From a virus, in the UHGV virus genome UHGV-1351068: a stretch of DNA of 64,000 bases. One strand, 5' to 3'. How positions within the stretch are numbered: position 1 is the first letter of the stretch; each line of letters opens with the position of its first letter. Shown piece by piece: positions 14,216 to 63,400 of the stretch. The notes below the pieces were generated by a model that was not told the DNA's origin, ran no database searches, and saw only the letters and a list, made by a program, of their open reading frames with translations. Position numbers and translations under genes: made by a program.

Positions 14216-14659
14216 TCAGTTAGACATGCATTTGTTGTAGATGTGATTTTGGAGAGATTTTAACTGCTCCATACGTTGTTTATGCTCATTATAACTCAAT
14301 CCGCCGTTAGCAAAATCAGTTAAACGAATCTGGTCATTCACTGCTGCCGCTTGAGCAGTGCACGTACGTTCTTTTTGAGTTTTACGCAGACGCTTAATTT
14401 CTTCCAGTTCATGCTTATTCTGCTCAATCATGTCAAGTTCCATCGCAGACAGCTGACGATTAGGATTAGCTTTTTCTTTCGCCAACCGACGCTCAACCGC
14501 GAGCGATTCAGCAGAGACCTGGTTGCTAGCACGATAGTATCCTACAGTACCGCCAATTGCTCGCACCTGTCCAACAGAAGAAGCCGGGACGATATCACCT
14601 TGTGGCATTTGACAACCAGTCAGCGTGAGAGCAACAATAACAGCAAGTAACGATTTCAT
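14216..14659 (-). CDS. lipoprotein (147 aa), imm.1-position
   Basis: signal peptide plus lipobox LTGC; coiled-coil C-terminus; early promoter upstream (14690-14721). Confidence 0.6.
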   Translation of the reverse strand: MKSLLAVIVALTLTGCQMPQGDIVPASSVGQVRAIGGTVGYYRASNQVSAESLAVERRLAKEKANPNRQLSAMELDMIEQNKHELEEIKRLRKTQKERTCTAQAAAVNDQIRLTDFANGGLSYNEHKQRMEQLKSLQNHIYNKCMSN

Positions 14660-14728: not shown

Positions 14729-17437
14729 TTAAAAATCGAACATGTCAAGAAGAGACGATTTCTCTTCATAGTCTAACCCTGCCGCTTCAGACATACCCGT
14801 CAGAGGTTTAACGAACGATTTTTGGAACAGAACACTGTGGTCAAGCCACACTAGAACTTCCTGTCGGATTTCTTGTGGCAGCTCAGTGCCCGATGGCCAT
14901 GCCATGCATTTCTCACCGTACGGGTTACCTTCACGCAGCGGGATGACCATCACTTTCTCACCTTCCATGATTGGTGTTATACCTTCAAATCCTGCGGTTG
15001 CTCGGTTATATGCCAAAGCACCTTTAACGTGATATGGTGTACCTTTATCTGGATATCCTGCACCGTCATCATACTTACCGATGTTGTTTGCAGTCTTAAC
15101 TTCGGCGATTACTTTATAATCAAGTTCACGATATTCAGACTCAAACTGCTTATAATATTGCTGTAAAGATTCTTCACCTTCCTGCAGCATACGCCGAATA
15201 GATTCTTCCAATGCATTCTGAACAGCAGTTGGCGTAGAACTTTGCTGAGTTTCCATACCCATGATTTTCAGATGAGGTTCTGCATATCGAGTACCTTCCA
15301 TATCATACACGTTCAGAGCATATCGTTTCTTCGCTTTCCAGAATCCGCCAATGCCGTTTGACCCCAACGGAGGACAAGAAATAGCTTCACGGTCCATGAA
15401 CATTAAATGTTCTTTGTTGTTCATGTATTCACACATCTCACGATATGATTGGTCAATCCATGGTTCCATTTTCTTCTTGCCGAATTGGTTCAGGAATTCG
15501 ACCAAATCGTTAGTTTCTTTGAAACGCTCAAGACCTACCTTCTCGATAACCTTATCAACACAAACGTAAATTGAGTCAGTATCACCAGCTACTACAAACG
15601 AATGTCCTTCGGTGCCACATACCTTGTTGAGGTATTCATTAACTTTACGTTCAATCCATTGAATTGCCATTTGACCAAACAATGTGATTGCTGATGCGTT
15701 GCGCAAATCATAATAACGGAAGTAAATGTTACCCAATGCACCATAAAGTGAGTTGATCAGAATCTTACGGTTTAACTGGTTAGTGTTACCCAAGATTTCA
15801 GCGTGTTTACATTCAAACATCAGTTTGTCAAGACACTCTTCGGTATATGTCAGCAGTTCTGCTTTCATATCATCAGAGAAATCTTCATAGACATTAACTT
15901 CTGCGAATTTATCGATAGTTCCAAACTTCTTATCATTCAGAACCTTTTTAATCAGTTCTTGATTTCGTTTGGCACCCATCATTTTATTTTTCCACTCTTT
16001 ACGCTGATAAAATACCTTCGCGATTTCAACTGGAATGACACCATCTACATCTTTACGATACATCCAACCATTTGGTGAACATGAATATTCATCAGACGGA
16101 CGAGGAGCAGTCTTGTTAATGTACTCACCCAACGGATGAAGTTTAAACTGTCCAACGATGGTTTCTGGTGAAATATTAACTTGTCGAATGATTGACGGAT
16201 ACAGAGATGTCAAGTCAAACGACATGATATAACGGTATGCAGCAGGAACTGGTTCCTTAACATACGCACCAGGATATGACTGTTTAACATGAGAACGACT
16301 TTGCGGAATAACTTTGTCCTGTTCTTTCAGACTGTTAAAGATGATTGCGTCCCATGTTTTAATTGGACTCATTACACCTTGATACGGCATCTTCGCATAA
16401 TAAGACATCGAGATAGCCAGGTCAATAAATCCGCGAACAGCATCAATCGCTTGTACTGATTCAACGTCGATGATGTTATACGAAATATACCGTTGGTGAT
16501 TAGTTTCACGCAACTTATTGATCGGACCGTCATATGCTAATTTACCTTTCTTGGTTTCATAATAAGCAATGAAATCCAACTTATACGTCGGTTGGTTCGT
16601 GAAACTAAATTTCTTATACAAATCCATGTAATCAAGAATAGTCACACCCATGATAGAATAAATTTCTTTATCACCATACATGTTTGTGATAATCTTAGAT
16701 GAAACTTTGTTCAGAGGAGAGAACCGTTTCATCGTACGCTCACCAAGAATCTGTTTCACACGATTCATGATGTACGGAATATCAAATCCTTCAATGTTCC
16801 AGCCAGTAAAAATTGCTGGGCATTTCTGTTCCCAAAGATTGATGTACTCAAGCATCATTTCTTTTTCTGAATTGAACGGCATATATACTACGCGGTCAAG
16901 AATATGTTGTGGAACTTCATCACCGCCTTCGGAATCTAAACGAGCAGCGAGTTTCTTGTCCCACTCGGAAACAGAACCATAAAGAGAATGCAGTAAATCA
17001 AATACGTAGAACTTGTCATCAACCGAATCGTAATGAGTGATAGCATCAATTTCATATTCTGCTTTCATCGGGTCTGGGAATTGAGATGCAGTAACCTCAA
17101 TGTCACAGTTTGCGATTCGGATGAATTTTTTATTATAAACGATTTCTGAACCGTAAGTATCACTGATATACGCGAGTTTGAAATCATCCATACCCATTGC
17201 TTCCATTCCCATATCTTCCATACGACGCATCCAATCGCGGGCATCTTTCATAGTTGGGAATGTATTTTTCTTGCAATACTTGCCGTAGATATCTTTGTAC
17301 TTTGTTTCTTCCATGCAATGACTAAACATCACAGGAGAATACGGAACACGACGCATGCGTTCCTCACCAGTAGAATCGATATAACGTTCTACGATGTCAT
17401 TGCCTAGAGATTCAACGCTAATATAAAATTCTTTCAT
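14729..17437 (-). CDS. 43: DNA polymerase gp43 (family B)
   Basis: 902 aa; N-terminus MKEFYIS..RYID.. resembles T4 gp43 as I recall it (about 85% over the N-terminal stretch); exo and pol motifs (YGDTDS). Confidence 0.97.
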   Translation of the reverse strand: MKEFYISVESLGNDIVERYIDSTGEERMRRVPYSPVMFSHCMEETKYKDIYGKYCKKNTFPTMKDARDWMRRMEDMGMEAMGMDDFKLAYISDTYGSEIVYNKKFIRIANCDIEVTASQFPDPMKAEYEIDAITHYDSVDDKFYVFDLLHSLYGSVSEWDKKLAARLDSEGGDEVPQHILDRVVYMPFNSEKEMMLEYINLWEQKCPAIFTGWNIEGFDIPYIMNRVKQILGERTMKRFSPLNKVSSKIITNMYGDKEIYSIMGVTILDYMDLYKKFSFTNQPTYKLDFIAYYETKKGKLAYDGPINKLRETNHQRYISYNIIDVESVQAIDAVRGFIDLAISMSYYAKMPYQGVMSPIKTWDAIIFNSLKEQDKVIPQSRSHVKQSYPGAYVKEPVPAAYRYIMSFDLTSLYPSIIRQVNISPETIVGQFKLHPLGEYINKTAPRPSDEYSCSPNGWMYRKDVDGVIPVEIAKVFYQRKEWKNKMMGAKRNQELIKKVLNDKKFGTIDKFAEVNVYEDFSDDMKAELLTYTEECLDKLMFECKHAEILGNTNQLNRKILINSLYGALGNIYFRYYDLRNASAITLFGQMAIQWIERKVNEYLNKVCGTEGHSFVVAGDTDSIYVCVDKVIEKVGLERFKETNDLVEFLNQFGKKKMEPWIDQSYREMCEYMNNKEHLMFMDREAISCPPLGSNGIGGFWKAKKRYALNVYDMEGTRYAEPHLKIMGMETQQSSTPTAVQNALEESIRRMLQEGEESLQQYYKQFESEYRELDYKVIAEVKTANNIGKYDDGAGYPDKGTPYHVKGALAYNRATAGFEGITPIMEGEKVMVIPLREGNPYGEKCMAWPSGTELPQEIRQEVLVWLDHSVLFQKSFVKPLTGMSEAAGLDYEEKSSLLDMFDF

Positions 17438-29324: not shown

Positions 29325-29795
29325 TCAATCGTGTGTCCAGGTAGAACCATTTCTTACCCAGAGTCTTTGGTTGTCAGAACCGCGCCAGTTTTTAGTAGTT
29401 GGCAGTGATTTCTCATATTTCCCATCAATTATAACATCGATGTGTTGTAGCAAATCTAAATCTTTGATATCTTCAAACTTATATCCTGTCCACATCCAGA
29501 TATCTTTCTCCGGAAATCTTGCTTTAACCCAAGAAACTAAATTTGAAATCTCTTCTCGGTTCTGTGGATAAAGTGGGTCACCACCGGTTAAGGTAAGGCC
29601 TTGGATATACGATTTGCTTAAGTGAGATGCAATTTCTTTAACGGTATTCATAGTGAATAGCTGTCCGTTACGAGCATTCCAAGTAGATTTATTATAACAC
29701 CCTTCACATTTATGCAAACACCCTGTGACAAAAAGAACGACCCTGCATCCAGGGCCATTCACAAAGTCAGAAGGGTAGATTCTGTCGAAATTCAT
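29325..29795 (-). CDS. nrdG: anaerobic RNR activating enzyme NrdG (radical SAM)
   Basis: 156 aa (T4 NrdG 156 aa); CLHKCEGCYN radical-SAM cluster motif. Confidence 0.9.
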   Translation of the reverse strand: MNFDRIYPSDFVNGPGCRVVLFVTGCLHKCEGCYNKSTWNARNGQLFTMNTVKEIASHLSKSYIQGLTLTGGDPLYPQNREEISNLVSWVKARFPEKDIWMWTGYKFEDIKDLDLLQHIDVIIDGKYEKSLPTTKNWRGSDNQRLWVRNGSTWTHD

Positions 29796-30000
29796 TGAAC
29801 CTTACCTCATTACGTGCTTCTACTTCTGCATCATATTTCCAGGGCTCATCAGTTTGAATAGCCCCAGCCGATAATCCACTTTCGGGGTCACGGGTTATAG
29901 CAATTCCAAGCGGATGCAGAACCTCTTTGTTGATTTTCCAAATCAATCCCCATTCGCTAAGTTGGTTCCAATCAACTTGCTTCATTGGTTTCTCTAACAT
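29767..30000 (-). CDS. hypothetical protein (77 aa)
   Basis: ORF between nrdD and nrdG. Confidence 0.4.
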   Translation of the reverse strand: MLEKPMKQVDWNQLSEWGLIWKINKEVLHPLGIAITRDPESGLSAGAIQTDEPWKYDAEVEARNEVRFNEFRQNLPF

Positions 30001-31810
30001 GTTTTACCCTATGCATAATTTCTTTGTTCTTACCAAGATTGAACCCACGCTCAGAAGGATTACCAAGATAGCCGCAAGTCCTACGAATTGTATTCATTTT
30101 CTTTGGATCAGTTTCACCGCAAATTGAACACGTGAATCCGTTTTCAGTAGGTGTCATCTCATGAGTAGAACCACAAGAAAGACATTTATCTACTGGCATA
30201 TTAACACCAAAATAATCCAACTTCTCGATAGCATAGTCCCATACCGCTTCAAGACCTTCAAGGTTGCGCTTCATGTCAGGAAGTTCAACATAAGAAATAT
30301 GACCACCTTTAGCAATGGAATGATATGGTGCTTCACGGTCAATCTTTTCAAAAGGCGACAGGTTTTCTTCTACTGACACATGGAAACTATTAGTGTACCA
30401 GCCTTTATCAGTTACGCCCTTAACATCACCAAACTTGGCTTGGTCAATCTTACAAAAACGATAGCAAAGACTTTCAGCCGGAGTAGAATACAAACTAAAG
30501 GCATAGCCGGTTTCTTCCGTCCACTTGTTTAGCTTAGTGTTAATGTACTTCAGGACGAGTTTACCACTTCCTTTAAAAGTAAGCATATCAAATTCGTGGA
30601 TGCCAATATATCCTAATGAAATTGAACTACGTCCATTTTTGAATAGCTCAAGAATTTCATCATCAGGTTTCATACGCACACCAAAAGCACCTTCCTGGTA
30701 AAGAATAGGAGCAACTGACGCAGTAACACCTTCAAGTGATTTAATTCTAGTTAAAAGAGCTTCTTTACAAATATCAAGACGTTCATCCAGTAGTTTGAAC
30801 AGTTTATTACTGTCATCCGAACTTTTATAATTTGCATCCAGAGCTATCCTAGGGAGGTTCAGTGTTACTACCCCTAGATTATTACGGCCATCAAGAACGG
30901 GTTTGCCAGAAGAGTCTCTCCAAGCACCAAGGAAACTTCTACAGCCCATTGGAGATACAGGAGTTTCTGAACCTGTAATTGCTCTATTATTTCTAGCACT
31001 GATGATATCAGGATACATGCGTTTAGCTGCGCATTCTAATGCAAGCTGCTTAATATCATAGTTCGGGTCTTCTTTACGTAGATTAATGCCTTCTTCTACA
31101 AACATCACAAGCTTTGGAAAAATTGGAGTAATTCCATCACGTCCTAATCCACGAATACGATTATCAAGAATAGCTCGTTGAATTAATTTTTCTTCCCATG
31201 ACGTGCCCATACCAAATGTGATAGTCACAAATGGAGTTTGGCCATTTGAACTGAACAAAGTATTCACTTCATATTCATACGCCTGGAAAGCATCAAATAC
31301 GTCCTTTTCTGTTTTTGAAATAGCATAATCTTTTACTAATGCTACTTGATATTTGCGAGCATCACGTACGTGCTTAGCGAATGTCTTCTCTACATAAGGA
31401 GCCAGAACTAAATCGACATTAGCAAATGTAGTTCCACCATATTGGTGAGATGCTACCTGTGCAGTGATTTGCGCCATAATAGCAGTAGCTACTCCAATAC
31501 TCTTAGGAGTTTCAATTTGAGCGTTACCAAGTTTAAAGCCATTCTGCAACATACCTTTCAAATCTACCAAACAGCAGTTGGTGAAAGGCAAAGCTGGACT
31601 GTAGTCCATATCATGAAAATGGATAACACCTTCTTTGTGTGCTTCCATTACAGAGAAAGGAATGACCTGATTGGCGATATGTTTAGATACGATACCAGCC
31701 ATCAGGTCACGTTGGGTAGGAAAAACACGAGAATCTTTGTTAGCATTCTCGTTTAAGAGGTCCTTGTTGGTTTTATTAATAAGTCCCTGGATTTCTAATT
31801 CGATATTCAT
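29972..31810 (-). CDS. nrdD: anaerobic ribonucleotide reductase NrdD (glycyl radical enzyme), uninterrupted
   Basis: 612 aa continuous ORF; C-terminal Zn-ribbon CLSCGS...CSICG and glycyl radical region RTCGY; no intron, unlike T4 nrdD. Confidence 0.92.
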   Translation of the reverse strand: MNIELEIQGLINKTNKDLLNENANKDSRVFPTQRDLMAGIVSKHIANQVIPFSVMEAHKEGVIHFHDMDYSPALPFTNCCLVDLKGMLQNGFKLGNAQIETPKSIGVATAIMAQITAQVASHQYGGTTFANVDLVLAPYVEKTFAKHVRDARKYQVALVKDYAISKTEKDVFDAFQAYEYEVNTLFSSNGQTPFVTITFGMGTSWEEKLIQRAILDNRIRGLGRDGITPIFPKLVMFVEEGINLRKEDPNYDIKQLALECAAKRMYPDIISARNNRAITGSETPVSPMGCRSFLGAWRDSSGKPVLDGRNNLGVVTLNLPRIALDANYKSSDDSNKLFKLLDERLDICKEALLTRIKSLEGVTASVAPILYQEGAFGVRMKPDDEILELFKNGRSSISLGYIGIHEFDMLTFKGSGKLVLKYINTKLNKWTEETGYAFSLYSTPAESLCYRFCKIDQAKFGDVKGVTDKGWYTNSFHVSVEENLSPFEKIDREAPYHSIAKGGHISYVELPDMKRNLEGLEAVWDYAIEKLDYFGVNMPVDKCLSCGSTHEMTPTENGFTCSICGETDPKKMNTIRRTCGYLGNPSERGFNLGKNKEIMHRVKHVRETNEAS

Positions 31811-50044: not shown

Positions 50045-50503
50045 TCAATTAATGTGTATAACTTTTGTGCTGATTTTACCTTTCAAACGTTTATCATTAA
50101 CGAATGCCATACGACACTTTATACTAGGTCCTTTTCCTGGTCTTGGAATATCCATGGTAAACCCTAGCCACAGATTTCCATCCGTAATTTCTAACCGCAT
50201 TGGCTTATACTCAATGTTTTCATCAATGTCCTTTGGGTCAATTGGAAGCCAAGGCATTGCTAAGAATTCATTAATTTCTTTAAGATGATTAGGAATTTTG
50301 GAAAGAACAGAGAATACATACTCTTCATCAATTTCACGTTGGATAGCACGGTCCAACAAATGATCAGAGTACTTAGTGAAGAAAGGCTCTTTACCCTCGG
50401 CTTTCGCCCGGGCACGAACAGATAAATTCAAAGAGCGAAATGCTTCCTCAAACTTACGACGCAGTTTAGTTCTGCGAATGAATACTTCTGGGTTAGTTGA
50501 CAT
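50045..50503 (-). CDS. regB: endoribonuclease RegB
   Basis: 152 aa; EVFIRR.KLRR.FE..FR...HLLDRAIQREIDE.YVF...LEITDGNLWLGFT parallels T4 RegB; early promoter 50529-50560. Confidence 0.9.
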   Translation of the reverse strand: MSTNPEVFIRRTKLRRKFEEAFRSLNLSVRARAKAEGKEPFFTKYSDHLLDRAIQREIDEEYVFSVLSKIPNHLKEINEFLAMPWLPIDPKDIDENIEYKPMRLEITDGNLWLGFTMDIPRPGKGPSIKCRMAFVNDKRLKGKISTKVIHIN

Positions 50504-50566: not shown

Positions 50567-50848
50567 TTAATATTTTTCTTCTGGTTGAAACACTGAACGA
50601 CACGCCCACATTGAGGCTTCCTTCAGGTGCTGAATAGCATTGCGAATTTGAGTAATACGCTCATGTGCTAAATCAAATTCTTTGTCGCTCATTGTGCTAA
50701 CATCTAAATTCATGTATTTTTCAACATGCTCTTCTTCTAATGCTTTAAAAATTAATCCAAGACGAATTTCCGCGTCTTTGATAGCATTTACTTTACCAAT
50801 CTTTTCATCGGTATGTGGCTTATATCCTTTGATATCTTCAATTGCCAT
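50567..50848 (-). CDS. hypothetical protein (93 aa)
   Basis: ORF. Confidence 0.45.
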   Translation of the reverse strand: MAIEDIKGYKPHTDEKIGKVNAIKDAEIRLGLIFKALEEEHVEKYMNLDVSTMSDKEFDLAHERITQIRNAIQHLKEASMWACRSVFQPEEKY

Positions 50849-51210
50849 TATAGTGCCTCTGTGAAAGTACGAGCGATAACGTCGCGCTGCTGTTCTGGTG
50901 TCAGGGAGTTAAAGCGTACCGCGTAGCCAGAGACACGAATCGTCAGCTGCGGGTATTTTTCCGGATGTTCAACCGCATCCAGCAGCGTTTCACGACGCAG
51001 CACGTTAACGTTCAGGTGCTGACCGCCTTCAATTTTTACCGTTGGCTGGTATTCAATTTCTACTTCACGAGCCTTGTAGCCATAAAAAGTTTCAGCATCC
51101 GTAATAGTATCTTCTTTAAGAACTTTTGAAACGATTATTCGTGCGTCATCACCATCTTCAATGTAAATAGTGCCTTTAAGTTCACCTTCAAGAATTTGAT
51201 ATGCTTTCAT
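50848..51210 (-). CDS. grcA: GrcA/YfiD-like autonomous glycyl radical cofactor
   Basis: 120 aa; C-terminal 60 aa nearly identical to E. coli GrcA ([56 protein letters not shown]) incl. glycyl radical motif RVSGY; locally GC-rich. Confidence 0.85.
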
Positions 51211-51218
51211 ATTTCCTC

Positions 51219-51563: not shown

Positions 51564-51856
51564 TGCATTGTTTTCTCTTGAATGCGTTGGTCATATGTGA
51601 TTAAACTTGAACTAATCACGCCTTTGAGCTTACCGGATATAAACTCAATTCTAAAATTAGGATAGCGATTCATCCACTTCGTGTTGGGAGCATTAGAAAT
51701 GAATTCTGCGCCTTTGAACGGGCCAGACAGAAACTTGTAGCGCTTGTACTCAAGCAGGTTGCCAGCAGTAACCATTGTTATTAATTGCTTCATATCGGCA
51801 AATCCTGTATTTTCCATTACTGTAATCATATCAACAATTTCTGTCTGTGTCATCAT
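51545..51856 (-). CDS. hypothetical protein (103 aa)
   Basis: ORF. Confidence 0.45.
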   Translation of the reverse strand: MMTQTEIVDMITVMENTGFADMKQLITMVTAGNLLEYKRYKFLSGPFKGAEFISNAPNTKWMNRYPNFRIEFISGKLKGVISSSLITYDQRIQEKTMQWLKLL

Positions 51857-52386
51857 TGCATTCCTATCACGAAAAATAAAGGTAAGGTATCATTAGGCAT
51901 AGACCATCTGATAGCTTCCTGGTACATATCATAGAACTTCATCATATCGGGAACTTTCATTGGTTCTTCAATGATAATTAATGCTCTTCCAAACTTTCTT
52001 CCCCTAAACTTGTAAGAGGAATCATTGGATAGAAATTCCCTGATTGTCATCGGAACAATTGATTTAGCTATATCGTTAGCTGGTAATTTATTAATTATGT
52101 GTGATGAATTGTATTCTCGTAGAATACCTTCCATCAATTCAGATGATTGTGTGTATCGAGTAGATAAGATTATAACCGAACCATCTTCAAGCAACCAATC
52201 GGTAGCGAATTGACATAAGGCTGCAGTCTTTCCGGTTTGTCTTCCACCGTCTAGACGAAGGGTACCGTACTCTCGCATAAGGCAAGACGGTTCATAAAAG
52301 CTATAGTTGGGATTATTCAATCGTCTGTCTGCAGCGTCTCTGAAAGCATGCATCAGGGTCAAATAAATGGGAGTTAAGTATTTCAT
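51853..52386 (-). CDS. P-loop NTPase-like protein (177 aa)
   Basis: Walker A-like GGRQTGKTAA; hydrophobic strand plus acidic residues LIIIEEP as Walker B candidate. Confidence 0.45.
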   Translation of the reverse strand: MKYLTPIYLTLMHAFRDAADRRLNNPNYSFYEPSCLMREYGTLRLDGGRQTGKTAALCQFATDWLLEDGSVIILSTRYTQSSELMEGILREYNSSHIINKLPANDIAKSIVPMTIREFLSNDSSYKFRGRKFGRALIIIEEPMKVPDMMKFYDMYQEAIRWSMPNDTLPLFFVIGMQ

Positions 52387-58882: not shown

Positions 58883-58958
58883 TGGTGCCGGTTGACGGAA
58901 TCGAACCGCCGACCTTCTCATTACAAGTGAGTTGCTCTACCTACTGAGCTAAACCGGC
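58883..58958 (-). tRNA. tRNA-Thr (UGU)
   Basis: revcomp GCCGGTT TA GCTC AGTAGGTA GAGC A ACTCA CTTGTAA TGAGA AGGTC GGCGG TTCGATT CCGTC AACCGGC A CCA. Confidence 0.85.
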
Positions 58959-58963
58959 ATATT

Positions 58964-59044
58964 TGGTGAAGAATTACCTACGTCACTAGGTTGGCTGTTC
59001 TGTCCACTTAAGGCTTGCAGCAGGAACACCATGGCTTTTCACCA
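58964..59044 (-). ncRNA. candidate small stable RNA (~81 nt) with perfect 7-bp terminal stem and 3' CCA
   Basis: minus-strand 5'-TGGTGAA...TTCACCA-3'; lies between two tRNAs; no T-loop motif. Confidence 0.3.
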
Positions 59045-59079
59045 TTGATCCTCTCACGACTGAGACATTCTTCATAATT

Positions 59080-59164
59080 TGGTGCACCGAGAGGGATTCG
59101 AACCCTCAATCCCTGCGGCGTAGCATTTTAAGTGCTATGTGTATACCAGTTCCACCATCGATGC
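59080..59164 (-). tRNA. tRNA-Leu (UAA), type II
   Basis: anticodon arm TAGCA CTTAAAA TGCTA, long variable arm, T-arm GAGGG TTCGAAT CCCTC, CCA encoded. Confidence 0.85.
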
Positions 59165-59168
59165 GAAA

Positions 59169-59245
59169 TGGTCGAGGCAGAAGGATTCGAACCTTCGACC
59201 TGCGGATTAGAAGTCCGCTGCTCTATCCAGCTGAGCTATGCCCCG
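59169..59245 (-). tRNA. tRNA-Arg (UCU)
   Basis: D-arm GCTC AGCTGGATA GAGC; anticodon arm GCGGA CTTCTAA TCCGC; T-arm GAAGG TTCGAAT CCTTC; CCA. Confidence 0.85.
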
Positions 59246-59249
59246 AGAG

Positions 59250-59376
59250 TGTTCAGGCAGGACTCGAACCTGCACGACTGATTCCGTCGGCGATTTACCA
59301 CCGTCGCCAGCATATGATGCAATATGCGAGCTCAAAAGGTGTCCGTCACCATGTCTACCGATTTCAACACTGAACA
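59250..59376 (-). ncRNA. tRNA-like stable RNA candidate (~127 nt), analogous in position to T4 RNA C/D
   Basis: 7-bp terminal stem TGTTCAG/CTGAACA, tRNA-like T-arm GCAGG TTCGAGT CCTGC, GGTAGAC D-loop-like segment, too long for a tRNA, no CCA. Confidence 0.35.
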
Positions 59377-59387
59377 AGATAATTATA

Positions 59388-59864
59388 TTACTGATTATTT
59401 ATAGCATTTCTTAAACGATAAAGTTGATTACAGAATTCGCGTTCAGTCAAAATCGTTTCAGAAATTTTATTTTTACCCATACTGTGAGTGAGTGTAGAAT
59501 TCCTGGTAGCAGCCAAAGCTCTTCTGAATCCTTCATTTTTACTAAGTGCATCGTATGCTCCTGTCAGTAAATTCTGATACGCTTCTGAAGCACGATGGAT
59601 TGGCACGCCTTTCCAATAAAGTGTTTGTGTTGGCCACCACCGTTTCTTTTTACCTTTGAACTTAGCCGATTTACCAACTAGTGTACATACATGTGCTTGC
59701 ATTTCAGGCGAAGAAAATTTGAGGGACTGCAAGAATCCCTCCATTGAGGCACATTCTACGCCATCATAGATAAATTTATGAGGAGCAAAGTTGCTCAAAG
59801 CACATGATGGATATGAACTACCTGAACCAATATCCATTACTTTTCCTTCACGTATTTCAACCAA
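59388..59864 (-). CDS. NADAR (YbiA-like) domain protein
   Basis: 158 aa; YbiA/NADAR motifs ALSNFAPHKF and ASMEGFLQSLKF. Confidence 0.6.
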   Translation of the reverse strand: MVEIREGKVMDIGSGSSYPSCALSNFAPHKFIYDGVECASMEGFLQSLKFSSPEMQAHVCTLVGKSAKFKGKKKRWWPTQTLYWKGVPIHRASEAYQNLLTGAYDALSKNEGFRRALAATRNSTLTHSMGKNKISETILTEREFCNQLYRLRNAINNQ

Positions 59865-60394
59865 TCAACTTTTAACGGGCTTTCTTTTTGTTTATACGTA
59901 ATTCCAACATGGAATGCAACCGGGGCGTCAGGAATACGGATTTCTTCTTTAATGTCAAAGATTTCTACTTTCTCAAATACTCGCATGAAATCATAGTCAT
60001 ATTCAATTGGATTACCCAACCAAGCCTGAATAGCATACATAACTTCATTTGAACAAGAATAATGATCATCTAAATAAGCATCAAACTCTTCGTCTGAACA
60101 ATCATATGCAGGAACATCAACGCCAAAGAATTTCTTGGAAAATTCAGGAGTTACATACTTCTGTTCAGTATGAAGCTTTTCAAGAATTGCTTCATGGTTG
60201 TAATCATTATTTCCAAGGCATTCACAACGCCGACCACGAGAAGAGAACCATTCAAGAACGTGAATTACTTGATTAATCTCTTCTTTTTCTAAGCCATAAA
60301 CCATTTGGGTAGAATATCGGTCGGCATCATTTTCCCAAGTGGTAATTGCCATTGCTAAGCCTTTAGGAATAACTTGTCCAAATTTAACTTTCAT
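59837..60394 (-). CDS. hypothetical protein (185 aa)
   Basis: ORF embedded in tRNA island. Confidence 0.45.
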   Translation of the reverse strand: MKVKFGQVIPKGLAMAITTWENDADRYSTQMVYGLEKEEINQVIHVLEWFSSRGRRCECLGNNDYNHEAILEKLHTEQKYVTPEFSKKFFGVDVPAYDCSDEEFDAYLDDHYSCSNEVMYAIQAWLGNPIEYDYDFMRVFEKVEIFDIKEEIRIPDAPVAFHVGITYKQKESPLKVDWLKYVKEK

Positions 60395-60590
60395 TATACA
60401 TTCCTCATATCTATTCGTTCTAAGGTATATTCTTTAAGAACAATCTGTTGACCACTTTTCAACAAGAATAATTGAATAGGATTTAATCCAAACCCGTGTT
60501 CTAAATCATGGTCAGTTAAATTTCTGTCGCAATAATTGAAATACATGTCAATTCTAACGAGAATGGTTTTCATAACTCCTCACACGAATT

Positions 60591-60667
60591 TGGTGACCCT
60601 GGCAAAGACTCGAACATGCAACCAATCCCTTATGAGGGGAACGCTCTACCAATTGAGCTACAGGGCC
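60591..60667 (-). tRNA. tRNA with CAU anticodon, T4 tRNA-Ile(CAU)-like (Ile2/Met)
   Basis: GGCCCTG TA GCTC AATTGGTA GAGC G TTCCC CTCATAA GGGAT ...TTCGAGT... CCA; resembles T4 tRNA-Ile. Confidence 0.75.
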
Positions 60668-60696
60668 TTTATAGAAATCTTATGACTTTTATAAAA

Positions 60697-60712
60697 GCCC
60701 TCCGAAGAGGGC
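60697..60712 (-). terminator. UUCG hairpin inside tRNA island
   Basis: GCCCTC-TTCG-GAGGGC. Confidence 0.45.
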
Positions 60713-60744
60713 GCCTTGTCGGGCTATCCACCTGCTAGGCAGAA

Positions 60745-60969
60745 TTACTCACACATAAAATCAGCTACTTCCCAGAAGTCATTTTCAACTGCTACTTTAA
60801 CTACCGGAGAAATTTCAGATGTTTTAATAGAAACAATTACATCACCTGCGACAGTTTCTACCAGACCAACGATTTTCTCGCGGCGAGCAACAAATTTACT
60901 CACCGGATGGAATTTGCCGGTAGCAGCGAACATAGCTTCTTGGTCAACAATCAGTGCGATACGTTTCAT
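60745..60969 (-). CDS. hypothetical protein (74 aa)
   Basis: ORF in tRNA island. Confidence 0.4.
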   Translation of the reverse strand: MKRIALIVDQEAMFAATGKFHPVSKFVARREKIVGLVETVAGDVIVSIKTSEISPVVKVAVENDFWEVADFMCE

Positions 60970-61023
60970 TCTTTTTCCTTGTTTGTTTTGATGTAGTAAT
61001 AATAACAGGTTATTCTTGTAGCA

Positions 61024-61314
61024 TTAAATCTCGAAAATCGTTCCGTTTTCCCACATTGTTGCGAACATAGGAGAAACCTTAACGAATGATTTGCTTCGCA
61101 TTGCAACGTAGTCGTTATCTACTTTAGCCAATCCTGAAGCAATATCAGTAATACGGCCACACCTCATAGAACCACGACCACCTTTATTATATGTACGTTC
61201 TCCGTAGAAAACGATATCGCCAACTTGCACTTCTCGACCTTTAGAATCTTTCATCATATTTTGCCTGCTGAATTCGTTTAAAATCGTTAACAAGTTCTTT
61301 TGGGTCTGACGCAT
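61024..61314 (-). CDS. hypothetical protein (96 aa)
   Basis: ORF. Confidence 0.4.
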   Translation of the reverse strand: MRQTQKNLLTILNEFSRQNMMKDSKGREVQVGDIVFYGERTYNKGGRGSMRCGRITDIASGLAKVDNDYVAMRSKSFVKVSPMFATMWENGTIFEI

Positions 61315-61606
61315 TGTTAAATGGAAGAACTTGACGTAGTTTACTTATTTTACATCCGGTATGATAAGCAATAACTTCTTGAATATCACGTTCACTGAAG
61401 TACTCATATTTAATTAATGCTTCATATCTGCATTTAATCCAAACCCACATACCTTTGCGTTCATCAAAAGTGTATGCAAAATCAGCATGAAGCATTAAAT
61501 CACGTTCAGATTTACATAATCCTAAAGCAAAATTAGTTGGACGATTCCATTGTAATTTCACCGTAATAGCATTTACGCTATTTGCTACACCGATAAAGAT
61601 ATTCAT
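61241..61606 (-). CDS. hypothetical protein (121 aa)
   Basis: ORF (overlaps previous ORF 3' region in another frame). Confidence 0.4.
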   Translation of the reverse strand: MNIFIGVANSVNAITVKLQWNRPTNFALGLCKSERDLMLHADFAYTFDERKGMWVWIKCRYEALIKYEYFSERDIQEVIAYHTGCKISKLRQVLPFNNASDPKELVNDFKRIQQAKYDERF

Positions 61607-61812
61607 TCTATTTCCTTCGCTTGATTTTGGTCTTCTTGTCGTGCACGAGAACGTCCTGCTTTATGCAGTGATTCGTAATATGCTCGACGTCTATCAATGT
61701 TTTCTGTACGATATGCTTTCCCGAAATGGGATGTTTTGAAGCCGTAGTATTTCATAATATAATTCTCAATGGCAAGTGATTGGACGGTATGCCCGGCCTC
61801 GAACCGAGTCAC
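61603..61812 (-). CDS. hypothetical basic protein (69 aa)
   Basis: ORF. Confidence 0.35.
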   Translation of the reverse strand: MTRFEAGHTVQSLAIENYIMKYYGFKTSHFGKAYRTENIDRRRAYYESLHKAGRSRARQEDQNQAKEIE

Positions 61813-61930
61813 ACTGACTTTGCAGAATCCGTGTGTTTAATATATCACCCATACTCGATAGCATATCTGAACGAGACTGCAATCCCGCTACTCAGCTTAC
61901 ACCATCTTGTATTGTGTCATACCGATAATT

Positions 61931-62007
61931 TGGTCTCCATAGAATGACTCGAACATTCGACCTTTCCATCCCAAATGGAACGCTCTACCAGGCTGAGCTA
62001 TACGGAG
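61931..62007 (-). tRNA. tRNA-Pro (UGG)
   Basis: CTCCGTA TA GCTC AGCCTGGTA GAGC G TTCCA TTTGGGA TGGAA AGGTC GAATG TTCGAGT CATTC TATGGAG A CCA. Confidence 0.85.
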
Positions 62008-62012
62008 TAATT

Positions 62013-62087
62013 TGGAGCATCCAGGGAGAATCGAACTCCCATCTTCTGGGTGGAAGCCAGACATAATATCCGCTATACGATGGATGC
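62013..62087 (-). tRNA. tRNA-Gly (UCC)
   Basis: acceptor GCATCCA/TGGATGC; anticodon arm TCTGG CTTCCAC CCAGA; T-arm GGGAG TTCGATT CTCCC; CCA. Confidence 0.8.
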
Positions 62088-62092
62088 AAATT

Positions 62093-62168
62093 TGGCAGGC
62101 CCTGAAGGAATCGAACCCTCATCACTGGGTTTGGAGCCCAGCATAATAGCCGTTATACTAAGAACCTG
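62093..62168 (-). tRNA. tRNA-Trp (CCA)
   Basis: anticodon arm CTGGG CTCCAAA CCCAG; T-arm GAGGG TTCGATT CCTTC; 76 nt with CCA. Confidence 0.75.
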
Positions 62169-62174
62169 TTGTTT

Positions 62175-62250
62175 TGGTGCGAATACCTGGGCTCGAACCA
62201 GGGACCTACCGCTTATCGGGCGGTTGCTCTACCAACTGAGCTATATTCGC
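62175..62250 (-). tRNA. tRNA with GAU anticodon (Ile), unusual C33
   Basis: GCGAATA TA GCTC AGTTGGTA GAGC A ACCGC CCGATAA GCGGT AGGTC CCTGG TTCGAGC CCAGG TATTCGC A CCA. Confidence 0.6.
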
Positions 62251-62254
62251 GAAT

Positions 62255-62339
62255 TGGCGGAGAGTAAAGGAGTTGAACCCTCACCGTTTCCGATGGCCCG
62301 GATTTCAAGTCCGGTTTGCTACCACTAGCGCTACTCTCC
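62255..62339 (-). tRNA. tRNA-Ser (UGA), type II
   Basis: acceptor GGAGAGT/ACTCTCC; anticodon arm CCGGA CTTGAAA TCCGG; long variable arm; G CCA. Confidence 0.8.
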
Positions 62340-62344
62340 AATGT

Positions 62345-62420
62345 TGGGGTGGCCGGCGGAATTCGAATCCGCGACATCGAGGATCACAACCTCGGGTTCT
62401 ACCAACTGAACTACGACCAC
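62345..62420 (-). tRNA. tRNA-His (GUG)
   Basis: GTGGTCG TA GTTC AGTTGGTA GAAC C CGAGG TTGTGAT CCTCG ... discriminator C73 then CCA; no encoded G-1. Confidence 0.8.
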
Positions 62421-62515
62421 ATCAATATTCACTCCATCCATCATGAGGACTTCATACGGTAGCTAAAGCAGGTTCATGACTTCTGCCTACACATCGTGTT
62501 GAATGAATATTAATT

Positions 62516-62590
62516 TGGCTGAACCACCTGGACTCGAACCAGGGATCGTAGGATCAAAACCTACTGCCTTACCAACTTGGCTATGATTCA
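62516..62590 (-). tRNA. tRNA-Gln (UUG)
   Basis: TGAATCA TA GCC AAGTTGGTAA GGC A GTAGG TTTTGAT CCTAC ... TTCGAGT ... G CCA. Confidence 0.8.
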
Positions 62591-62596
62591 ATTGTT

Positions 62597-62673
62597 TGGA
62601 GGCGGAGGCAGGATTCGAACCTGCGCGTGTCGGGATATGAGCCCAACATTCTACCAACTGAAGTTACCCCGCA
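62597..62673 (-). tRNA. tRNA-Met (CAU), initiator-like
   Basis: anticodon arm TTGGG CTCATAT CCCGA with three consecutive G:C pairs 29-31/39-41; acceptor TGCGGGG/CTCCGCC with unpaired 1:72; irregular 8-10 region. Confidence 0.6.
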
Positions 62674-62834
62674 TTTATCCGGGTTCTTGAAGTACTAACA
62701 AGTAGCTTGATGTAGAACACGCTAAAGATATAATCTTACGAATATAGAGCTTATTCCGTGGGAACAAACAGCTTCGTCCTCGGCATTATCTTATAGGACT
62801 CAAACTCATCTTCAAGAACTGCCACGTTCTTATT

Positions 62835-62910
62835 TGGCGGACCTAACGGAATTCGAATCCGTGACTCTCGCGTGACAGGCGAGTATTTTAACCGCTGAAA
62901 CTATAGGTCC
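62835..62910 (-). tRNA. tRNA-Asp (GUC)
   Basis: GGACCTA TA GTTT CAGCGGTTA AAAT A CTCGC CTGTCAC GCGAG AGTC ACGGA TTCGAAT TCCGT TAGGTCC G CCA. Confidence 0.85.
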
Positions 62911-63140
62911 ATAATTCGCTTTCAGAGATACTCTGGCACGATGCCGAAGCAAAGGGGAACAGGACTCTCATCACCTTGGTACCAGATGAATCTTGTTTAG
63001 CACTCTGTTCTAAGATGTATCCCTGAAAGCGAACTTTCAACGCCGTAAGAAATTATAAGCACGTAGTTATCGTTGAGGGAACTCGTACACAGGGAATTCT
63101 ATGCCGACGATTTATCAGAACGTCTTCTGACTTCTTCATT

Positions 63141-63225
63141 TGGCGGGCCGTGCAGGTATCGAACCTGCCTAGTCATTTCTGACACGGATTAACAGTCCGT
63201 CGCTTACCCTCTCAGCCAACGACCC
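63141..63225 (-). tRNA. type-II (long variable arm) tRNA with anticodon GUU (Asn)
   Basis: GGGTCGT TG GCT GAGAGGGTA AGC G ACGGA CTGTTAA TCCGT GTCAGAAATGACTAG GCAGG TTCGATA CCTGC ACGGCCC G CCA; 3-bp D-stem and 15-nt variable stem-loop. Confidence 0.65.
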
Positions 63226-63230
63226 GAATT

Positions 63231-63307
63231 TGGTGGGACACCGAAGACTCGAACTTCGGACACCCGGATTAAAAGTCCGGTGCTCTAACCAACTGAGCTA
63301 GTATCCC
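63231..63307 (-). tRNA. tRNA-Lys (UUU)
   Basis: GGGATAC TA GCTC AGTTGGTTA GAGC A CCGGA CTTTTAA TCCGG GTGTC CGAAG TTCGAGT CTTCG GTGTCCC A CCA. Confidence 0.85.
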
Positions 63308-63313
63308 TAAATT

Positions 63314-63400
63314 TGGTGGGGAGTAATGGAGTCGAACCACTCGAGCCTTTTGAGCAACAGATTTACAGTCTGTCCCGCTACCCCTACGGTCTAACTCCCC
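63314..63400 (-). tRNA. tRNA-Tyr (GUA), type II
   Basis: acceptor GGGGAGT/ACTCCCC; anticodon arm CAGA CTGTAAA TCTG; long variable arm; A CCA; late promoter 13 nt upstream. Confidence 0.8.

Follow-up and report, generated by a model that had tools for sequence, protein, structure and literature searches.

The virus genome UHGV-1351068, analysed here as one strand of 64,000 nucleotides (nt; the window), belongs to a T4-like phage of Klebsiella/Raoultella in the genus Jiaodavirus. Close to regB it carries a small gene which corresponds to vs.6 of phage T4 and whose product resembles, mainly in its second half, the bacterial autonomous glycyl radical cofactor GrcA (YfiD). The gene is composed of an AT-rich 5' part and a short 3' tail, both phage-specific, which enclose a tract matching the grcA of a bacterial host (Table 1). 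On the evidence presented below it is very probable that vs.6 is an old T4-like gene which has become mosaic through repeated host-to-phage gene conversion of its radical half and whose product has a GrcA-type role in the repair of pyruvate formate-lyase (PFL).

Table 1. Features of the vs.6 locus and other features of the window (ORF, open reading frame; aa, amino acids; GC, guanine plus cytosine)
Feature	Position	Strand	Description
vs.6 (phage grcA-like gene)	50848..51210	minus	120 aa, ATG...TAA ORF
Phage-specific 5' part of vs.6, codons 1-63	51022..51210	minus	AT-rich, unlike bacterial grcA
Putative host-derived conversion tract, gene positions 190-344, codons 64-115, structured radical domain	50867..51021	minus	155/155 nt identical to R. 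ornithinolytica grcA
Phage-specific 3' tail of vs.6 (T TTC ACA GAG GCA CTA TAA)	50848..50866	minus	Sequence reading
Putative ribosome-binding site GAGG, 4 nt upstream of vs.6 ATG	51215..51218	minus	Sequence reading
GAGG within vs.6 tail, 7 nt upstream of acb2 ATG	50856-50859		Likely Shine-Dalgarno site of acb2
GC maximum of the 64 kb in stretches of 155 nt	50873-51027		56.8% GC
acb2 (T4 vs.4 homologue), downstream of vs.6	50567..50848	minus	Pfam PF24729 Acb2_Tad1_hairpin, 6.3e-16
regB, neighbour of vs.6	50045-50503		Pfam REGB_T4, 1.6e-65
177-aa ORF at T4 vs.8 position	51853-52386	minus	Weak Terminase_6N (P-loop) match, E=9.7e-6
NrdG	29325-29795
NrdD	29972-31810
16 clustered tRNA genes	58883-63400	minus	Thr, Leu, Arg, Met x2, Pro, Gly, Trp, Ile, Ser, His, Gln, Asp, Asn, Lys, Tyr
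GC-rich peak	14478-14632		54.8% GC
Family-B DNA polymerase ORF	14729-17437	minus

The vs.6 Protein

The product of vs.6 agrees with the description of GrcA/YfiD in TIGR04365 and IPR011140, that is, a stand-alone protein with a C-terminal glycyl-radical domain of the PFL type. Residues 60–101 match the Pfam family Gly_radical (PF01228; E=4.8e-18), and the top match among solved structures is the nuclear magnetic resonance structure of E. coli YfiD/GrcA (PDB 6OWR; E=9.8e-40, residues 20–120), followed by PFL 696–758 (E=1.9e-27). The motif RVSGYAVRF occupies residues 92–100 with G95 as the radical glycine, and the radical loop RVSGYAV (R92–V98) is the same in the window protein and in the GrcA proteins of Escherichia coli and Raoultella.

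Like bacterial GrcA, the protein is a free-standing polypeptide of ~14 kDa whose C-terminus duplicates PFL ~693–759 together with the radical glycine. Its C-terminal 65 residues include 59 that are identical to E. coli GrcA (with three differences only between GGQHL and the C-terminus) and 62 that are identical to Raoultella GrcA. In contrast, just 14 of the 55 N-terminal residues are shared with E. coli GrcA (~25%), and this half is 7 residues shorter than in the bacterial protein. The genomic setting also differs, since the gene belongs to the early/middle cluster of a virulent phage and is not placed beside ung. A previous examination of this DNA based on its letters alone (the sequence-only reading) had recognised a GrcA/YfiD-type spare-part gene with a C-terminus of ~60 residues, RVSGYAVRF included, nearly identical to that of E. 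coli GrcA, and both points are borne out by these matches.

A Tract Identical to Host grcA inside vs.6

The base composition of vs.6 changes abruptly within the gene. The internal tract of 155 nt reaches 55.5% GC, whereas the window averages 39.4% (z=3.7). Only 0.12% of all stretches of this length attain such a value, and the GC maximum of the entire 64 kb nearly coincides with it (Table 1), tied with the tRNA cluster. GC content at third codon positions (GC3) is 0.57 in the tract and 0.33 ± 0.05 (maximum 0.43) in 54 long minus-strand ORFs of the window, whereas the phage-specific 5' part of the gene shows a GC of 0.355 and a GC3 of 0.21.

The same segment is indistinguishable from a bacterial allele. 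Aligned with grcA of Raoultella ornithinolytica, gene positions 190–344 are identical at 155 of 155 nt. Of 185,579 bacterial species, each searched in one genome for an exact 23-mer taken from the middle of the GC-rich part, R. ornithinolytica (NBRC 105727) alone contained it, at a site within the chromosomal grcA adjoining ung, the gene that is also next to grcA in E. coli; a scan of IMG/VR with this 23-mer gave zero matches. Over positions 187–345 the window gene is 98.7% identical to Raoultella, 91.2% to Klebsiella pneumoniae and 86.8% to E. coli grcA. The limits of the tract were defined by site painting and by the lengths of identical runs.

T4 vs.6 shows a comparable arrangement with a different partner, positions 219–356 being identical to E. 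coli grcA at 138 of 138 aligned nt. In their first 165 nt the window and T4 genes are each ~44% identical to grcA and 73% identical to each other; for the complete 5' part of the window gene the figures are likewise ~44% to both E. coli and Raoultella grcA and 73% to T4 vs.6. Over the last 195 nt, identity to E. coli grcA amounts to 94% for T4 vs.6 and to 81% for the window gene, and the two phage genes are 82% identical to each other. At the 24 sites in these 195 nt which discriminate between the two hosts, the window gene carries the Raoultella base at 20, the E. coli base at 2 and neither at 2, as against 0, 23 and 1, respectively, for T4 (Fisher's exact test, p=7e-11). Since almost all of these sites are synonymous, the pattern is not explicable by purifying selection. 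Host-like composition and identity at synonymous sites, with a partner that depends on the host of each phage, are the hallmarks of a mosaic formed by intragenic recombination between host and phage, and vs.6 displays them all.

An ancient phage gene without recent exchange, kept similar to grcA by purifying selection and convergent codon usage, would be in keeping with the extreme conservation of the radical-domain protein across glycyl-radical enzymes of the PFL type. However, this leaves unexplained the identity at every synonymous site over 155 nt (window and Raoultella) and 138 nt (T4 and E. coli) and the fact that the window and T4 genes differ exactly where their hosts differ; moreover, lineages without conversion retain the protein motif at 73–84% nt identity, which is what selection alone yields. 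These comparisons, together with the site painting of Jiaodavirus genes described below, refute it.

Two other sources of the tract were considered and set aside. With blastn, all 5,426 E. coli genomes gave only 86.3% identity over 175 nt, and a Raoultella-type allele is preferred as donor. The pflB gene is a poorer match than grcA, K. aerogenes pflB being 81% identical in the tract against 91–99% for grcA alleles. The grcA and pflB sequences of K. pneumoniae and K. aerogenes used for these comparisons were taken from chromosomes mislabelled as plasmids in PLSDB, a database which holds chromosomes of 4.1–5.4 Mb under plasmid labels for K. pneumoniae, Aeromonas caviae and Proteus mirabilis (CP125156.1, NZ_AP026896.1, NZ_OL790812.1). 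The grcA of K. aerogenes NCTC10006 has an extra A in a GAAAAA run and is annotated as a truncated coding sequence of 324 nt, which probably reflects a sequencing or assembly error and not a true frameshift.

An Old Gene in a Conserved Position

The tract is embedded in a gene that is common to T4-like phages. T4 Vs.6 and the window protein have the same length and share 100 of 120 residues (83%), distributed as 39 of 55 in the N-terminal half (73% nt identity) and 61 of 65 in the C-terminal half. The vs.6 gene of Klebsiella phage ATCCa is 98.9% identical to the window ORF. In T4 the gene order is regB, vs.3, vs.4, vs.5, vs.6, vs.7, vs.8, with vs.6 annotated as autonomous glycyl radical cofactor GrcA, and the order regB, vs.4 (acb2), vs.6, vs.7/vs.8 is common to the window, T4, RB69 and CC31. 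Full-length similarity, which extends to the phage-type N-terminal half, and a conserved position are both found, as in the Tevenvirinae orthologous group of T4 vs.6; judged by these features, the window ORF is an ortholog of T4 vs.6. Y06I is the SwissProt name of T4 Vs.6. This is in keeping with the annotation of the T4 region examined, in which vs.6 is the gene labelled as a GrcA-type cofactor, and with its 120 aa, which agree with the ~14 kDa reported for Y06I. Homologous DNA occurs in ~1,500 phage records, T5-like phages included, and vs.6 is among only eleven ORFs of unknown function that were conserved in six of six early T4-like genomes (PMC1524935).

The T4-like gene order and the orthology with T4 vs.6 show that vs.6 in its entirety has not been newly acquired. 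The sequence-only reading had envisaged a recent capture of the whole gene from an E. coli-like enterobacterial host, with later divergence of the N-terminal half, a scenario to which the near-identity of the C-terminal protein to E. coli GrcA and the GC-richness of the region lend some plausibility. Its N-terminal half, however, resembles T4 vs.6 (73% nt, 39 of 55 aa) and not bacterial grcA (~44% nt), is AT-rich like the phage, and lies in a gene whose position is conserved with T4, RB69 and CC31; the tract is 86.8% identical to E. coli and 98.7% to Raoultella, with a run of 155 identical nt; and one half of a gene cannot fall to 44% while the other remains at 100% at synonymous sites. Recent capture of the whole gene is thereby refuted. 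What stands of that proposal is a recent enterobacterial origin of the ~155 GC-rich nt, with the donor shifted from E. coli to an R. ornithinolytica-type allele, and the elevated GC content relative to the flanks. The N-terminal half is indeed very unlike bacterial GrcA, but it is an old phage part, differing by 1.4% among Jiaodavirus phages, and not the product of divergence after a recent transfer. Low identity to host grcA combined with average GC, which had been named in advance as the mark of an ancient phage gene, characterises the 5' half and is absent from the 3' half.

Recurrence among Phages

Replacement of the radical half is not peculiar to the window phage. Among eight Jiaodavirus vs.6 genes, aligned together with those of several other genera and with host alleles, positions 1–186, the part least conserved relative to the bacterial GrcA protein, differ by a mean of 1.4%, whereas positions 187–345, the most conserved part, differ by 6.7%. 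Such an inverted divergence is the pattern expected if DNA was imported from different donors. When the genes were painted at 14 sites which separate R. ornithinolytica from K. pneumoniae grcA, the window phage and ATCCa proved to be Raoultella-type at 13 of them; TNG87 and Nispero are K. pneumoniae-type at 12 and 11 sites and agree with that allele without interruption over 86 and 101 nt, respectively; and Ra_O-2, PMBT63, Roth17 and pzk-kv6-1 show a mixed Raoultella/K. pneumoniae painting.

Searches of the phage collection with the 159-nt tract of host grcA alone extend this picture. The E. coli tract retrieved 267 phage records at an identity of at least 99% (one of them 159/159), 370 at 95–99% and 14 at 90–95%. 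For the K. pneumoniae tract the corresponding numbers were 0, 108 and 33, and for the R. ornithinolytica tract 0, 5 and 122. Among the matches listed, those of at least 95% to the E. coli tract were all T4-type phages, mainly Escherichia and Shigella isolates with single Yersinia and Serratia ones, and those of at least 95% to the K. pneumoniae and R. ornithinolytica tracts were all T4-type Klebsiella or Raoultella phages. As just 14 records fall at 90–95% for the E. coli tract, a gap separates host-matched from unmatched groups. Taken together, recurrent conversion is in itself very likely real.

The isolation host of phage ATCCa, the closest relative of the window phage, was K. pneumoniae ATCC 13883. 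Its tract is nevertheless of the R. ornithinolytica type, apart from a single additional substitution (CTG to ATG, Leu to Met in TLLD). In view of this mismatch the tract may record an earlier host and not the host of isolation.

Probable Direction and Mechanism of the Exchange

Several features favor a transfer out of the host into the phage. The GC3 of the phage tract (0.57) lies within the range of the hosts (0.47–0.68) and not near that of the remainder of vs.6 (0.21), and in the hosts it follows without a break on an ordinary bacterial N-terminal half. Raoultella and K. pneumoniae grcA are 89.9% identical in the N-terminal part and 91.2% in the tract, and equal divergence inside and outside the tract is what vertical descent in the hosts would produce. 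The opposite course, in which a phage donated the tract to its host or bacterial assemblies contain phage-derived sequence, could be suspected from the occurrence of the exact 23-mer in one R. ornithinolytica genome only among the species representatives. It is opposed by the host composition of the tract, by its continuity with the bacterial N-terminal half beside ung in Raoultella, by the even divergence between hosts, by the finding that all 5,426 of 5,426 E. coli genomes match the window gene, best at grcA and at 80–90%, and by the match of T4 to the one E. coli grcA allele examined. We consider a reversed direction very unlikely.

The position of the tract points to the type of event. Its 5' end falls at a GGxGGxCAGCAC motif, where homology between phage and host begins, and its 3' end 19 nt before the stop codon, so that it is internal to the region alignable between both. 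Such a placement is characteristic of gene conversion between homologues that were already in place and not of a fresh illegitimate insertion. Phages of the T4 type recombine efficiently with short homologies carried by plasmids or by the DNA of the host, as in marker rescue and with insertion/substitution vectors, and their recombination would supply the conversion machinery. We infer that the radical-domain half of an old vs.6 would have been overwritten repeatedly by homologous recombination with the chromosomal grcA of the current host. In the window phage the last event would have copied ~155 nt from an R. ornithinolytica-type allele, leaving phage-specific sequence in the divergent N-terminal half and in the 19 nt at the 3' end.

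Whether the radical half of vs.6 in Tequatrovirus, Mosigvirus and Jiaodavirus is re-synchronised with host grcA because this is selected, as adaptive host tracking and not as a neutral by-product of recombination, is a more speculative matter, and the adaptive alternative seems to us possible but rather doubtful. If it holds, tracking would keep the phage spare part matched to PflB and PflA of the host (for instance LLDAVEH as opposed to LEDAVKH), and the tract would be a natural, datable marker of the recent host species of a virulent phage and of the rate at which T4-like phages capture host chromosomal DNA.

Predicted Function

T4 Y06I (14 kDa) and YfiD receive a glycyl radical from the PFL-activating enzyme and restore activity to O2-cleaved PFL, according to the work of Wagner et al. 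(2001; pmid 11444864) as it is related in PMC8683613. Residues 1–60 of YfiD are disordered and aid the binding of cleaved PFL, whereas residues 61–127 fold like PFL 693–759 and carry the radical (PMC8683613). The mosaic boundary of the window gene coincides with this domain boundary; the phage retains a first YfiD-like part of its own and takes the radical part from the host.

The radical domain of the window protein is 75% identical to the last 67 residues of PflB, and repair of host PflB, plausibly also of TdcE, is its best-supported predicted function, a PFL-radical role being suggested by its 83% identity to T4 Vs.6. By analogy with the T4 and E. coli proteins, host PflA would install the radical on G95. 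A host PFL that has lost its C-terminus through oxygen cleavage would next receive the C-terminal domain in its place, and production of acetyl-CoA and formate would resume while the phage infects a fermenting or microaerobic cell. The recurrent replacement by host grcA sequence suggests indirectly, in addition, that the domain works interchangeably with host GrcA on host PflB.

A different role, either as a spare part for the phage's own NrdD, as the sequence-only reading had put forward, or through another phage-specific activity of the N-terminal half, might be considered because NrdD and NrdG are both encoded in the window, as that reading had correctly noted. A role of vs.6 in nucleotide metabolism was speculated upon in an early genome paper (PMC1524935), and the N-terminal half is phage-specific and conserved among phages, in a protein that misses the GrcA equivalog cut-off (see below). 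However, BLASTP of the protein against the NrdD of the window revealed no detectable similarity (best E=7.3), in contrast to the 75% identity with PflB, so that its C-terminal domain does not duplicate the glycyl-radical C-terminus of NrdD and rescue of this enzyme is unsupported. The reported rescue of cleaved PFL by the T4 ortholog and the interchangeability with host GrcA suggested by the repeated replacements likewise favor PFL. A role of this other kind is improbable, although less so than the alternatives on the origin of the gene.

Observations Weighing against This Interpretation

A number of observations count against repeated host conversion combined with PFL repair, in one part or the other. 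Not all related phages carry host-matched tracts: those of Slopekvirus vs.6 are 80–84% identical to host grcA, those of E. coli phages of the genus Krischvirus ~75–76% and those of T5-like phages 73–75% to E. coli grcA. Against A. caviae grcA (one allele used as query) all phage records stay below 90%, so that Aeromonas phages are not host-matched either. The vs.6 tract of Karamvirus CC31 (77–80%) is similarly unmatched. As unmatched lineages infect the same hosts, conversion is restricted to certain lineages and is not universal; a plausible cause is the failure of homologous recombination once the copies have drifted too far apart. Part of the mosaicism within Jiaodavirus could stem from recombination between phages which spread a few original host imports. 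Furthermore, the host alleles compared comprised one of R. ornithinolytica, two of K. pneumoniae, one of K. aerogenes and one of E. coli, a set that does not pin down the exact donor species or strain.

On the functional side, the window protein, scored with the NCBIfam equivalog model for GrcA, attains 148.2 bits (residues 18–120) where the cut-off requires 170, as compared to 226 bits for Raoultella GrcA. The low score is due to the divergent N-terminal half, and on this basis the protein is placed in a phage subfamily of GrcA-like proteins and not with strict GrcA equivalogs. The model nevertheless aligns this half from residue 18 onwards, which identifies it as a remote homologue and not as an unrelated sequence. 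With ~25% identity to bacterial GrcA in a half that in YfiD matters for the binding of cleaved PFL, the target or the regulation of the phage protein could differ.

Two further observations concern the unmatched groups. The Slopekvirus copy in Klebsiella phage phiKp_9 has the Klebsiella-type residues LLDAVEH and yet only 82–84% DNA identity to Klebsiella/Raoultella grcA, a pattern that could result from an older conversion or from selection for host-type residues. The T5-like Demerecviridae (e.g., Salmonella phage S113) and the Krischvirus E. coli phages also possess a grcA-like gene, with radical-domain DNA 73–76% identical to E. coli grcA.

Relation to Known Systems and Significance

The gene and its biochemical role are already known; the addition of this analysis is the evolutionary signature of host conversion. 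The window gene is like T4 vs.6 in its 120 codons with 100 identical residues, its place in the vs.4/acb2–vs.7 slot near regB, its two-part architecture and its host-identical 3' tract, and differs in the type of this tract, which is of the Raoultella/Klebsiella type (LLDAVEH) in the window and of the E. coli type (LEDAVKH) in T4. Only two spare-part proteins have been validated for PFL, one of them T4 Vs.6/Y06I, of which the window ORF is the ortholog in a Klebsiella/Raoultella phage. Labels such as 'pyruvate formate-lyase' or 'hypothetical protein' given to such phage genes should be changed to vs.6-type autonomous glycyl radical cofactor.

The psbA and psbD genes of T4-like cyanophages, metabolic genes of host origin, reportedly contain host-like patches that are ascribed to recombination between host and phage copies. 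The present case is distinct from these in that it involves enterobacterial T4-like phages, a gene of 363 nt, an exchange within one structural domain and tracts perfectly matching named host alleles. Of documented cases, intragenic recombination in cyanophage psbA, a subject treated by Sullivan et al. (2006; PMC1484495), comes nearest to that of vs.6. A search of the literature, whose reach did not extend to the 2003 T4 genome review or to Wagner et al. (2001), brought up no account of vs.6 being converted to host alleles.

Strictly virulent phages that degrade host DNA thus carry perfect copies of 138–159 nt of host grcA inside an old AT-rich gene, and different lineages, even sister strains, bear the grcA alleles of different hosts. 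This makes vs.6 a compact natural case of host-to-phage gene conversion beyond the photosynthesis genes of cyanophages. The tract may in addition record recent host use, since the closest relative of the window phage was isolated on K. pneumoniae whereas the tract points to R. ornithinolytica.

The 3' Tail, acb2 and Other Features of the Window

Downstream of the tract, the last 15 nt of vs.6 (ACAGAGGCACTATAA) are invariant in eight of eight Jiaodavirus genes and unlike every host allele. The stop codon of vs.6 and the start codon of acb2 overlap by 1 nt, as a consequence of the absence of vs.5, which in T4 separates vs.6 from vs.4. The GAGG within the tail is the likely Shine-Dalgarno site of acb2, a gene directed against the cyclic oligonucleotide-based anti-phage signalling system (CBASS), and acb2 is probably translationally coupled to vs.6. 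The 19-nt tail would be retained because it provides this ribosome-binding site, which may explain the 3' limit of the host tract.

Upstream, at the position of T4 vs.8, the label 'terminase large subunit' given to one relative of the 177-aa ORF is unlikely to be correct. Most other GC-rich peaks of the window (near 59–63 kb) are accounted for by the tRNA cluster, and for a further peak, adjacent to the ORF of the family-B DNA polymerase, the E. coli genomes gave no match.

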